Positions 458 to 1,164 of a stretch of DNA of 7,183 bases are shown one piece after another. Made by a program: the position numbers and the translations under genes. The stretch comes from a virus (taxonomy: Duplodnaviria; Heunggongvirae; Uroviricota; Caudoviricetes). A model generated the notes under the pieces. It was not told where the DNA came from. It searched no databases and saw only the letters and a list, made by a program, of their open reading frames with translations. Positions within the stretch are counted from its first letter, which is position 1. Every line of letters begins with the position of its first letter. The stretch lies in the IMG/VR virus record IMGVR_UViG_2706794673_000003; one strand, given 5' to 3'.

Positions 458-967
458 TTAGCTAAAAAAAGGCAACACGAAGCTAAAACTACCAACATAA
501 AGTGCTGACCAGCTAGCAGCTGAAATCAGACTCACTGTATACACTTTCACTGGATGAAGTTGCAACATTCCTGCCACCAAAGGAGCAATATAACGCAGCA
601 CGGCGATAAAGCGCGAAGTGAAAAGTATTGACACAGAGTTATTTTGCAACTGAAGGCGAACCCGTTCTATTGTATTGGAACGGCTTGATATTATACATGC
701 AAGTTGAGGGATATGCCCAATTATTATACCAAGATGGTAATTAACGATAGTACCGCACCATGCGCCACTCATGACCGTGATTCCAGCTTCCCATGGTGAA
801 AGAGTCGTCTTGCTGACTGTAATTACAGTGGCCATCATAATTGATGCTGGTGGCAATATCGCCGAAATGAGTAAAGTGGATTTTGTGAACGCTATTATAA
901 AAAGAAGCCCCCATAGGCGATATGGATGAAGTACAAAATAGTTCATCAAAGCATTTATCCACTCCAT
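458..967 (-). CDS. DedA-family (SNARE-associated/TVP38-like) inner membrane protein, short divergent form; prophage cargo (moron) gene
   Basis: Minus-strand ORF with stop TAA at 458-460. ATG at 965-967 is preferred over the TTG at 968-970 used by the ORF track; AGGA lies about 11 nt upstream. The product is highly hydrophobic and carries DedA signatures: ILPPASIMM (cf. LPGDSLL), GTIVNYHLGIIIG (GxxxVNYxxG) and SRFIAVLRYIAPLVAGM (cf. RFIAFVRTLLPTIAG of YqjA). The gene is on the opposite strand to the flanking phage genes and looks lower in GC by eye. Confidence 0.65.
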   Translation of the reverse strand: MEWINALMNYFVLHPYRLWGLLFIIAFTKSTLLISAILPPASIMMATVITVSKTTLSPWEAGITVMSGAWCGTIVNYHLGIIIGHIPQLACIISSRSNTIERVRLQLQNNSVSILFTSRFIAVLRYIAPLVAGMLQLHPVKVYTVSLISAASWSALYVGSFSFVLPFFS

Positions 968-1164
968 CAATGTCTTTCCTTCTGTGAATTTTTCTTTGCT
1001 ATTTAACCGTGATACGACTTAATTTAGGCTTAAACACCTTACATTTACAAGGTACTCCTGTGGGGGGCCCTGCCACGGAGCGTCGCAGGAGTGAGTGATG
1101 AGGAAGAATTAAAGCAACCTATTGTGACAGGCAGCGATAACAGTAAATCACAGGAAGCATAATC

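Follow-up and report, generated by a model that had tools for sequence, protein, structure and literature searches.

Gene content of the locus

The window is a stretch of 7,183 nucleotides of Caudoviricetes DNA (IMG/VR record IMGVR_UViG_2706794673_000003). The final gene of the lysis cassette is Rz, which encodes the i-spanin (positions 58–369, plus strand; PF03245, 78.4 bits). Rz1, the o-spanin gene, is nested inside it (119–325, plus strand; PF06085, 75 bits), and the pair is also matched by the phrog_13 and phrog_3198 families for Rz/Rz1. The packaging and head module opens with terS, the terminase small subunit (1165–1929, plus strand; phrog_370, E 7.5e-95). It is followed by terL, a large subunit of the PBSX/Terminase_3 type (1880–3283, plus strand; PF04466, 131 bits); the terL reading frame is already open from 1772, and 1880 is the PGAP start in L001.

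Between these modules lies a coding sequence for an atypical DedA-family protein (458–970, minus strand), with its stop codon at 458–460. It starts at TTG 970, giving 170 amino acids, or at ATG 967, giving 169, and residues are numbered here from ATG 967. Inspection of the sequence reveals AGGA at 980–977 on the same strand, 6 nt 5' of the TTG and 9 nt 5' of the ATG, which makes a good Shine-Dalgarno sequence. Because Rz/Rz1 and terS are on the plus strand and this gene is on the minus strand, it converges with Rz and diverges from terS, which is the arrangement given in the original prediction made from the DNA alone. PGAP already annotates the product as 'DedA family protein'. Searches of the literature with the protein accession, or with DedA together with prophage, moron or Shigella, found no paper describing the gene, in keeping with the earlier statement that a DedA paralog is not known as a prophage moron; the Enterobacter colistin papers name DedA only generically.

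The gene has a GC content of 41.8% (GC3 38.2%), and that of the interval 399–1157 is 42.7%. The flanking genes are at 54.2% (Rz), 51.2% (terS), 48.5% (terL) and 53–55% (head genes), with GC3 of 50–61%. An estimate by eye of roughly 40% against 50% is thus borne out by the computed 41.8% against 48.5–55%. Among close homologs the Shigella copy is the most AT-rich, with a GC3 of 38% compared with 41–54%.

A cargo gene in the Rz-terS slot

Comparison with L002, a relative in which the slot is empty, limits blastn homology to positions 1–359 and 1158–2000. The distance from Rz to terS is 57 bp in that relative and 795 bp in the window, where a 798-bp segment (360–1157) stands in place of the 57-bp spacer. 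Other relatives carry different genes in the slot (Klebsiella phage ST16-OXA48phi5.2 has a 45-aa ORF there, and HK620 has hkbK-N), which answers the earlier question of what related prophages hold there. An unrelated prophage of Citrobacter youngae (L019), with a GpA-type terminase, has a 78%-identical copy in the same slot and orientation. Window positions 448–1042 align to positions 6520–5927 of this prophage with 82% DNA identity by blastn. The mobile unit so mapped comprises, on the minus strand, the gene flanked by about 75 bp on its upstream side and about 10 bp on its downstream side, and its upstream end at 1042 falls close to the outer coordinate of 1040 first proposed. In L004 and L090 the same pair of Rz and cargo gene is fused to a third packaging module.

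The gene is carried by six of 5,426 complete Escherichia coli genomes, each time in the Rz-terS slot of a prophage, and the other 5,420 lack any copy. In E. coli and Shigella together it is seen only in prophages, between Rz and terS. Fourteen IMG/VR viral contigs carry it at 99–100% identity, most with flanking Rz and terS. Across S. flexneri, S. sonnei, S. dysenteriae and E. coli, no fewer than 1,000 contigs encode the exact protein, with the reading frame intact and 99–100% identical. The host prophages are full of IS elements, and the reading frame is intact in all six E. coli genomes, even beside disrupted or deleted phage genes. No close homologs were found among 50,697 phage genomes.

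Two further contexts were considered and rejected. The IMG/VR contig L105 (73% identity) appeared to offer a fourth phage context; its copy adjoins a Mu-like prophage on the left, outside the element, and so is probably host flank. An 82-kb Citrobacter freundii 'plasmid', considered as a possible phage-plasmid, is a chromosomal fragment with icd, purB and phoPQ.

The original prediction had named host chromosomal DNA as the alternative to phage cargo. Close homologs are indeed chromosomal in Citrobacter, Kosakonia and Enterobacter, but the confinement of the E. coli and Shigella copies to prophages, the empty slot in related prophages, the E. coli genomes without the gene and the viral contigs with it leave this alternative effectively refuted. 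It is almost certain that the gene is a real DedA-family moron of a Shigella/E. coli lambdoid prophage, as was first proposed. Positions 448–1042 would represent a self-contained cassette that originated in bacteria and was placed between Rz and terS, in antisense to the late operon.

Family membership and signature residues

The product matches the Pfam family PF09335 (VTT_dom) with 52.4 bits against a gathering threshold of 33.9 (E 9e-14); the match covers residues 41–161 and spans profile positions 3–121 of 123. This confirms the expectation of a DedA/TVP38-family polytopic membrane protein. A profile HMM of the protein's clade scores highest against paralogs of COG0586 (YabI 60.6, DedA 58.4, YqjA 57.8 and YghB 43.7 bits), and far lower against proteins outside it (YdjX 11.8, YqaA 8.4 and YdjZ -1.2 bits). 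On these scores the protein is closest to COG0586, the subfamily of putative undecaprenyl phosphate (UndP) flippases driven by the proton motive force. The boundary of the clade is abrupt, with members scoring at least 149 bits and all other proteins at most 83, and by this measure the protein is a member of a discrete Enterobacterales clade branching from COG0586. The NCBIfam equivalog cut-offs were missed, with 31 bits for DedA (NF008102, cut-off 236) and 19.9 and 16.3 bits for UptA (NF052604 and NF052605, cut-offs 250 and 300).

Nineteen clade members share an invariant set of residues, encoded on the minus strand, which includes Lys29 (883–881), Pro39-Pro40-Ala41-Ser42 (853–842), Arg119 (613–611) and Arg125 (595–593); Ser30 and Thr31 are likewise invariant. 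In COG0586 proteins, E39 and D51 have been proposed to bind protons and R130 and R136 to bind phosphate, and these residues were reported to be essential (Todor 2023, PMC10127716). A study of YqjA found D51A and R136A to be non-functional (bioRxiv 10.64898/2026.09.20.752871). The arginine pair, at the second re-entrant helix's tip, is matched by R119 and R125. The two acidic positions are occupied by Lys29 and Ala41 throughout the clade, and the final, C-terminal helix is missing from the clade proteins.

At the position of the membrane glutamate, lysine is restricted to the clade; among 146 outgroup representatives, the residue is Glu or Asp in 129. The replacement of Asp51 by Ala was considered as a second diagnostic feature and rejected, as the wider family does not conserve this position (of about 146, Ala in 48, Thr in 28, Ser in 22 and Asp in 13); the one truly unusual change is therefore that from Glu to Lys. 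The description of the protein as a DedA paralog therefore holds as regards family membership, but not in the sense of an ordinary paralog, since the protein lacks the acidic residues essential in YqjA and YghB and scores below the equivalog cut-offs. For the same two reasons canonical proton-driven recycling of UndP is not to be assumed.

Predicted structure

An AF2 model built from a 59-sequence alignment has a pLDDT of 76.9 and a pTM of 0.73. Helices are predicted at residues 15–29, 32–35/41–52, 58–85, 111–117/124–134 and 139–168, a pattern that agrees with the published DedA core (PMC10127716), and the model is at its weakest in re-entrant loop 1 (residues 33–40), where pLDDT is below 50. 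The model is consistent with a minimal DedA core of two re-entrant hairpins and three transmembrane helices. A sequence search of the PDB returned no DedA structure and Foldseek against the PDB gave no match with E below 2.8. Foldseek against BFVD gave only weak matches to giant-virus SNARE-associated proteins (E 0.4) and none to a phage protein.

A candidate PhoP-type promoter

The upstream part of the mobile unit contains two conserved elements on the minus strand. One is a -10-like hexamer, TTAAAT (1001–1006), identified by alignment and present in 38 of 43 upstream regions; Enterobacteriaceae clade members have TTAAAT or T(C/T)TAAT here, followed by AG. The other, 12 nt upstream of the hexamer in the window, is a PhoP-box-like direct repeat, TGTTTA-agccta-AATTAA (1019–1036), with half-sites at 1036–1031 and 1024–1019, and there is no -35 hexamer. 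In 12 diverged orthologs the sole invariant upstream columns are GTTnA, then ATTnA about 11 nt on, then the -10-like hexamer a further 12–13 nt away. The composite motif occurs at -61 to -69 in 38 of the 43 upstream regions, the same sequences from which it was derived, compared with 13 matches in 2.58 Mb of background. These comparisons show that a conserved, putative promoter footprint travels with the gene.

A PhoP box was defined as (T/G)GTTTA-N5-(T/G)GTTTA with at most two mismatches. Read in the 11-nt register, the window matches this box at 9/12 positions, with three mismatches, and it matches better with a 6-nt spacer; the copy in the C. youngae prophage scores 10/12. The Shigella half-sites are 12 nt apart, compared with 11 in all other copies, owing to one extra base (a 6-nt rather than a 5-nt spacer), and this base or the mismatches could weaken or abolish binding of the regulator. 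In about 25 Enterobacter species a perfect 12/12 PhoP box lies between the ortholog and the M-box/MgtE gene, about 100 nt upstream.

PhoP promoters of architecture I have a box in direct orientation 11–13 nt upstream of the -10 (Zwir 2012, PMC3335776). In 38 of the 43 upstream regions the repeat is 12–13 nt from TTAAAT or TCTAAT, a spacing within this range. As in the architecture I promoters of mgtA, phoP, slyB, yrbL and pmrD, a single direct hexamer repeat replaces the -35. The first half-site of the cargo repeat is a perfect TGTTTA, and the second, nATTnA, departs from the (T/G)GTTTA consensus; GTTGA and GATTA are among the half-sites of validated Shigella PhoP boxes (PMC5775216). In a phoPQ microarray of S. 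flexneri 301 grown in LB, genes of this region are not among the 117 differentially expressed genes or the 38 predicted boxes, a comparison for which SF07xx is an estimated locus tag.

Other regulatory signals were sought. A consensus promoter scan of 300–1250 found nothing upstream of the gene, and the best manual sigma-70 candidate is TTGTAA-18-TAAATT, with 8/12 matches. No intrinsic terminator was detected after the stop codon in the same interval. Folding of 365–470 and 968–1165, each on both strands, yielded z-scores no more extreme than -0.92, which gives no support to a structured RNA element, and the window matched no Rfam family at gathering thresholds.

An activator-dependent promoter upstream of the gene is, in our assessment, somewhat favoured by this footprint. 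That the activator is PhoP specifically we regard as falling a little short of an even chance; the repeat could belong to another regulator of the OmpR/PhoB family. From the PhoP-box-like repeat at 12–13 nt from a -10 without a -35 we expect the promoter to respond when Mg2+ is low or the envelope is under stress. Its antisense orientation would allow the gene to be expressed from a repressed prophage.

Chromosomal orthologs and magnesium transporters

Most members of the clade are stable, syntenic chromosomal genes, found in about 30 species of the Enterobacter group, in Morganella and in several Arsenophonus genomes. The orthologs of Enterobacter, Lelliottia, Huaxiibacter and Arsenophonus adjoin an M-box riboswitch and an MgtE-like gene, and the Morganella ortholog adjoins corA. 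This synteny is missing from the phage-borne, Citrobacter and Kosakonia copies, and the gene order could simply have been passed down by descent, without significance for function. In Klebsiella, phenotypes of DedA mutants are rescued by Mg2+ or Ca2+ (PMC10846249).

Proposed function

The best overall explanation is that the gene is expressed in the lysogen, depends on an activator and acts in the envelope on an anionic lipid carrier without proton coupling; we judge the chances of this whole account to be evenly balanced. The lysogen would transcribe the gene from its own activator-dependent promoter, which would have arrived with the cassette and would be induced by low Mg2+ or envelope stress. 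The protein would enter the inner membrane and bind or translocate an anionic lipid with a phosphate headgroup, most likely UndP or a derivative. To judge from the residue chemistry, transport would be equilibrative rather than driven by the proton motive force, because there is no carboxylate to carry a proton. Taken by itself, the proposal of an anionic carrier-lipid substrate without proton coupling is tentative and probably the less likely outcome. The result may be a lysogenic-conversion trait affecting envelope homeostasis, for example the supply of lipid carrier for O-antigen or for L-Ara4N modification, together with tolerance of low Mg2+ or cationic peptides.

The dN/dS of the gene is 0.15–0.23 against the Citrobacter and Kosakonia homologs, its own branch included, a range that shows purifying selection on the coding sequence. 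It might all the same be a silent or decaying passenger from a Citrobacter- or Kosakonia-like donor, unexpressed or without a role and kept by clonal inheritance of cryptic prophages, and the gene would then be an ordinary hitch-hiker. H-NS often silences AT-rich foreign DNA, and the Shigella copy, with the lowest GC3 of the close homologs, is a likely target. The 1-bp insertion between its half-sites, the IS-riddled prophages that carry it, its absence from the PhoP regulon lists of S. flexneri 301 and the lack of a detectable canonical promoter or terminator point the same way. Against this stand the intact reading frame on so many contigs and in all six E. coli genomes, the retention of every clade-invariant residue, the dN/dS and the independent fixation of the gene in the same slot of a different phage. 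We consider a silent passenger unlikely, and it is highly probable that the gene is functional and under selection.

Two other functions can be set against uncoupled handling of a lipid carrier. The protein might be a canonical proton-driven UndP flippase paralog, similar to UptA or YghB, that adds recycling capacity, as the name of the family would lead one to expect; its nearest relatives are COG0586 proteins, and the arginine pair and the serine beside the D51 position are kept. Clade-wide, though, the acidic Glu39 and Asp51, both reported as essential in COG0586 (PMC10127716), have given way to Lys and Ala, there is no C-terminal helix, and the DedA and UptA equivalog scores (31 and 19.9 bits) are far below their cut-offs, all of which makes this function improbable. 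A role in superinfection exclusion, as proposed on first reading, or in other anti-phage defence, by blocking DNA entry or triggering abortive infection, would suit a polytopic inner-membrane protein whose gene occupies a classic site for morons and runs antisense to the late genes. This is very improbable, given that no family of the PADLOC defence models matched at E <= 0.01, that most clade members are chromosomal and lie beside Mg2+ transporters rather than in defence islands, and that the 50,697 phage genomes yielded no close homolog and the viral structure library no phage match.

The account of uncoupled lipid-carrier handling can be extended to a fourth functional type of bacterial DedA protein, although in this full form we think it unlikely to hold. 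Such proteins would combine the arginine pair with a fixed lysine and no carboxylate, transport anionic carriers without coupling, be wired to PhoP and low Mg2+, as is suggested by the PhoP-type promoter and by the M-box/MgtE and CorA genes next to orthologs, and be captured repeatedly by phages together with their promoter. Uptake of the gene by temperate Shigella and Citrobacter phages would then have served lysogenic conversion. Its substrates would be UndP or UndP-linked intermediates carrying L-Ara4N or sugars, and raised tolerance of the host to cationic peptides, polymyxin or low Mg2+ could follow. The protein might act in part through heterodimers with host DedA proteins, formed at the re-entrant-hairpin interface.

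DedA proteins are nearly universal, none has a solved structure, their link to the recycling of UndP, an essential lipid carrier, is recent, and the coupling mechanism is debated. In a natural, conserved clade with Lys for Glu and the arginines retained, the proton-coupling model can be put to the test with existing proteins, and the neighbouring Mg2+ transporters and the PhoP-type promoter point to physiological conditions under which a phenotype might be sought. For phage biology, the gene would extend the cargo of the well-known slot between Rz and the terminase by a new class. The carrier prophage is common in Shigella, where PhoPQ controls polymyxin tolerance and virulence. If expressed, the gene could change, from within a prophage, how the host tolerates envelope stress or how susceptible it is to antimicrobials.

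Comparison with known systems

The proteins YqjA, YghB, DedA and YabI, and UptA of Bacillus subtilis, have the same core of two re-entrant hairpins and three transmembrane helices as that predicted here. COG0586 proteins and the clade alike have the arginine pair and the functionally important serine that follows the D51 position. The clade differs in having Lys for Glu39, Pro-Ala for Gly-Asp51, a shorter N-terminal region and no C-terminal transmembrane helix, and the cargo protein has 169 amino acids compared with 219–254. COG0398, which includes YdjX, YdjZ and the eukaryotic scramblases TMEM41B and VMP1, lacks one or both of the arginines, whereas the clade keeps both; sequence similarity between the two is negligible, at 11.8 bits or less.

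The modified DedA proteins of antibiotic clusters, such as DptP, are also variants encoded on a non-core element, and are thought to give immunity to lipopeptides that target UndP (PMC10127716). By analogy, the cargo gene plausibly alters sensitivity to agents that target the lipid carrier. It differs from DptP in being carried by a prophage, with no biosynthetic cluster or known resistance phenotype.

In common with other morons located between Rz and cos or terS in lambdoid phages, the gene is missing in close relatives and has a distinct base composition. The comparison with lambda bor that was drawn at the outset is exact, as bor is likewise a single gene on the minus strand, 31 bp after Rz and opposite to the late operon. 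The cargo gene differs from bor in that its promoter looks activator-dependent and its terminator was not found here. The serum resistance conferred by bor is due to a small outer-membrane lipoprotein, whereas the gene product here is predicted to be a polytopic inner-membrane protein of the DedA family.

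The DedA-like gene and its slot

The DedA-like gene lies on the minus strand at 458..970, beginning at a TTG at 970 (170 aa) or at the adjoining ATG at 967 (169 aa, the start used for protein numbering here), and a good ribosome-binding site, AGGA, is read upstream of it at 980-977 on the same strand. The product had been predicted to be a DedA-family membrane protein, and a Pfam search bears this out, with a score of 52.4 bits to PF09335 (VTT/DedA; curated threshold 33.9, E 9e-14). The neighbours are also as described in the original prediction: Rz (58-369, plus strand) with the embedded Rz1 (119-325, plus strand) upstream, and the terminase small subunit gene terS (1165-1929, plus strand; phrog_370) downstream. 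A plus-strand gene for a Terminase_3/PBSX-type large subunit comes after terS, and past it are genes for the portal, a Mu-F-like protein, a DUF2213 protein and a cement protein. Within the portal gene (DUF1073-type, 3496-4710) a stretch of N (X in translation) at about 3630-3870 breaks the reading; it has the look of masked or unresolved sequence rather than of a biological feature.

The lower GC content claimed for the gene holds on computation, at 41.8% (GC3 38%) compared with 48.5-55% (GC3 50-61%) for the phage genes. This Shigella/E. coli copy (458-967) is AT-richer than every close homolog (loci L019-L024; GC 47-54%, GC3 41-54%), which suggests either amelioration toward AT after capture or an AT-richer, unsampled donor. 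Its AT-richness would make it a likely target of H-NS.

Many E. coli prophages with the same Rz and the same terS have a spacer of just 57 bp between them. These empty-slot relatives match the window only at 1-359 and from 1158 on, so 798 bp in the window stand in place of 57 bp. Elsewhere the slot contains a 45-aa ORF (Klebsiella phage ST16-OXA48phi5.2) or hkbK-hkbN (HK620), and in lambda it holds bor, on the opposite strand and 31 bp past Rz. In one empty-slot relative (L002) PGAP calls the small-terminase homolog a hypothetical protein of 162 aa and places its start at 3712; this start is probably too far downstream, because homology to terS of the window runs from an ATG near 3423.

The gene is phage cargo. 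Among 5,426 complete genomes of E. coli, only 6 have it, and all six copies are at least 99% identical, single, prophage-borne and immediately past Rz. Its frequency in Shigella is high, the exact protein being found on at least 1,000 contigs of S. flexneri, S. sonnei, S. dysenteriae and E. coli. IMG/VR includes 14 viral contigs with the gene. At two loci (L004 and L090) the same pair of Rz and DedA-like gene is fused to another packaging module (539-aa TerL, Phage_portal_3 portal), with the joint at window position 1204, barely inside terS. An unrelated Citrobacter youngae prophage, which has a GH19 endolysin, a holin_8 holin, a DUF1441 small terminase and a lambda-type GpA large terminase, carries a 78%-identical homolog in the same slot and orientation. 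Its DNA similarity to the window is limited to 448-1042 (82% identity), and we therefore take this interval, the ORF with about 75 bp on its upstream side and about 10 bp on its downstream side, as the mobile unit.

An isrI-type Hfq-binding sRNA (64.7 bits against a threshold of 45) is found near the lysis region of the C. youngae prophage (L019 8593-8689, minus strand). Between the cargo unit and terS in the window there is an imperfect inverted repeat (ACTCCTGTGG...CGCAGGAGT, 1054-1092), which has no T-run and a folding z-score of only -0.92, and is absent from the Citrobacter unit and the empty-slot relatives.

No close homolog of the protein was found in a collection of 50,697 phage genomes. 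The sole DedA matches there, H61 and H62 (CAKLQH020000009.1 and CAKLQF020000013.1; 30% identity, annotated dedA_1), are at the extreme ends of 128-kb 'Acinetobacter phage MD-2021a' contigs and may be host sequence. A 73%-identical copy on an IMG/VR 'viral' contig (L105, 2179-6510) was rejected as a further phage context: the DedA gene is just outside the left end of a Mu-like prophage (MuA transposase, c-repressor-like gene). Beside it are genes for SRAP, SMEK and Macro-domain proteins, and the viral contig probably includes it as host flank.

A charge-reversed DedA clade

The homologs, all of them 165-185 aa long, make up a separate clade that is confined to Enterobacterales. Members are found in nearly every Enterobacter species and in Lelliottia, Huaxiibacter, Kosakonia, Citrobacter, Hafnia, Morganella, Proteus and Arsenophonus. 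Profile search scores are at least 149 bits within the clade and at most 83 bits beyond it, and only 15 of 1.84 billion representatives reached E <= 1e-10 in an exhaustive search. The clade scores 44-61 bits against YabI, DedA, YqjA and YghB, which belong to COG0586, and at most 12 bits against YdjX, YdjZ and YqaA. Judged by sequence, COG0586 is the nearest subfamily; it holds the putative UndP flippases (Todor et al., PMC10127716). The DedA-like protein scores far too low to pass as a DedA or UptA equivalog in NCBIfam.

In an alignment with the E. coli paralogs, the DedA-like protein has Lys29 in place of Glu39 of YqjA and Pro40-Ala41 in place of Gly50-Asp51, and its C-terminal transmembrane helix is missing. 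Arg119 and Arg125 (R130 and R136 of YqjA) and the Ser following the D51 position are invariant, while K29-S30-T31 and P39-P40-A41-S42 are unchanged across 19 clade members. At the K29 position Glu or Asp is found in 129 of 146 proteins outside the clade (taken from the 150 nearest outside representatives), and Lys is found only within it. Since the D51 position varies across the wider family, only the Glu-to-Lys change is exceptional. These are the residues by which Todor et al. told the subfamilies apart: acidic residues and arginines are both present in COG0586, COG0398 has no acidic residues and lacks one or both arginines, and COG1238 has the acidic residues only (PMC10127716). The arginines and lysine of the clade, with no carboxylate, are on alignment a fourth combination beside these three.

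The phage-borne gene is under purifying selection (dN/dS 0.15-0.23 against the Citrobacter and Kosakonia homologs). An AF2 model from 59 sequences (pLDDT 76.9, pTM 0.73) predicts the helix pattern of a minimal DedA core. No solved structure matches the protein, and the viral structure library gave just weak matches to giant-virus SNARE-associated proteins.

Association with Mg2+ transporter genes

A CBS+MgtE-type transporter gene divergently adjoins the chromosomal ortholog in about 30 species from the genera Enterobacter, Lelliottia and Huaxiibacter. The orthologous MgtE-like gene of Arsenophonus (56% identical) is in tandem, directly downstream of the DedA-like gene; linkage to M-box and CBS-MgtE takes two arrangements across these four genera. 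The M-box Mg2+ riboswitches preceding the MgtE-like genes are bona fide (108.6 and 107.6 bits, gathering score 44). The eight Morganella genomes all have a convergent corA about 10-30 bp from the DedA-like gene. Positions for the M-box, CBS-MgtE and corA linkage are 5676-5845 (minus) in locus L028, 6792-6961 (plus) in L057 and 6520-7470 (minus) in L077. The linkage is missing for the phage-borne copies and for those most similar to them, in Citrobacter and Kosakonia. A connection between DedA proteins and divalent cations has precedent, as Mg2+ or Ca2+ rescues DedA-mutant phenotypes in Klebsiella (PMC10846249).

In C. freundii and C. meridianamericanus (L009/L010) the DedA-like gene comes after a dinI-like gene. 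The C. freundii copy abuts icd, and ars genes and Ail/Lom remnants are close by. The icd gene is a lambdoid attachment site, and these features together suggest a decayed prophage remnant. This gene order in C. freundii is seen on an 82-kb record deposited as a plasmid (L110, NZ_CP056259.1 27515-46021); since it carries icd, rluE, mnmA, purB and phoPQ, the record resembles a chromosomal fragment.

A putative promoter that travels with the gene

A consensus scan found no sigma-70 promoter upstream of the gene and no terminator downstream. The 75-bp block that travels with the gene contains a phylogenetic footprint. Across 12 aligned upstream regions, taken from hosts with DedA-like proteins just about 45-78% identical, the sole invariant columns are GTTnA, ATTnA about 11 nt on and, after 12-13 nt, a -10-like T(T/C)(T)AAT followed by AG; a -35 hexamer is absent from these regions and the spacers are variable. 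The window has TGTTTA at 1036-1031, AATTAA at 1024-1019 and the -10-like TTAAAT at 1006-1001, all on the minus strand. Of 43 upstream regions of the Enterobacteriaceae type, 38 contain the composite motif, at -61 to -69 and in one case at -85, against a background of 13 matches in 2.58 Mb of fetched sequence. None of 31 upstream regions from Arsenophonus, Morganella and Proteus contains it. As the motif was derived from those very sequences, weight rests on its positional conservation and not on the count.

This layout is that of architecture I of PhoP-activated promoters, where a single direct PhoP box is 12 nt upstream of the -10 and overlaps the -35 position (PMC3335776). GTTGA and GATTA are among the half-sites of validated Shigella PhoP boxes (PMC5775216). 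A perfect 12/12 box, TGTTTA-N5-GGTTTA, precedes the DedA-like ATG by about 100 nt in about 25 Enterobacter species (L027-L050), in the intergenic region common with the divergent M-box/mgtE gene (e.g. L028 5901-5917). Against PhoP, the Shigella copy has one additional base between the half-sites, the second half-site is off the PhoP consensus, and a published S. flexneri 301 phoPQ microarray in LB does not list the region of the gene (PMC5775216). This leaves PhoP as a candidate, not an established regulator; the data support dependence of the putative promoter on an activator of the OmpR/PhoB type. In the Kosakonia copies (L020, L022 and L024; protein 72-73% identical) the direct repeat is missing and TGGTATAAA, an extended -10-like element, stands about 40-25 nt before the ATG in its place, so regulation is apparently rewired there.

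Proposed function and alternatives

Late, Q-antiterminated transcription should run into the DedA-like gene. Because the gene lies within the late operon but is read from the other strand, collision is expected, and by analogy with bor in lambdoid biology the gene would then be expressed only in lysogens. We suggest that low Mg2+ or envelope stress would switch it on through a response regulator, with PhoP as the likeliest candidate. In the product, a minimal DedA core, the site would be purely cationic (K29, R119 and R125). The protein may take up lipids with a phosphate head, UndP for example, and let them equilibrate between the two sides of the inner membrane; we propose no proton coupling, since no carboxylate is available. 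The lysogen could gain carrier-lipid-dependent envelope modification or stress tolerance.

The gene might instead be a silent passenger, which we consider unlikely. Somewhat less probable again is a canonical UndP flippase driven by the PMF, as the acidic residues are missing. We doubt strongly that the product acts in superinfection exclusion or defence, because it has no PADLOC match and the clade consists mostly of stable chromosomal genes. The idea that the gene is host DNA is refuted and is given hardly any credence.

Comparison with known systems

The slot for phage cargo genes (morons) between lysis and packaging genes is textbook knowledge, and the PGAP name 'DedA family protein' (WP_011069285.1) is already public. 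A DedA-family gene as recurrent cargo at the lysis/packaging junction, in at least three phage backbones, appears to be undescribed. The same appears true of the discrete, charge-reversed clade outside all three published DedA subfamilies, of its link to Mg2+ transporter genes, and of the putative PhoP-type promoter that moves together with the DedA-like gene.
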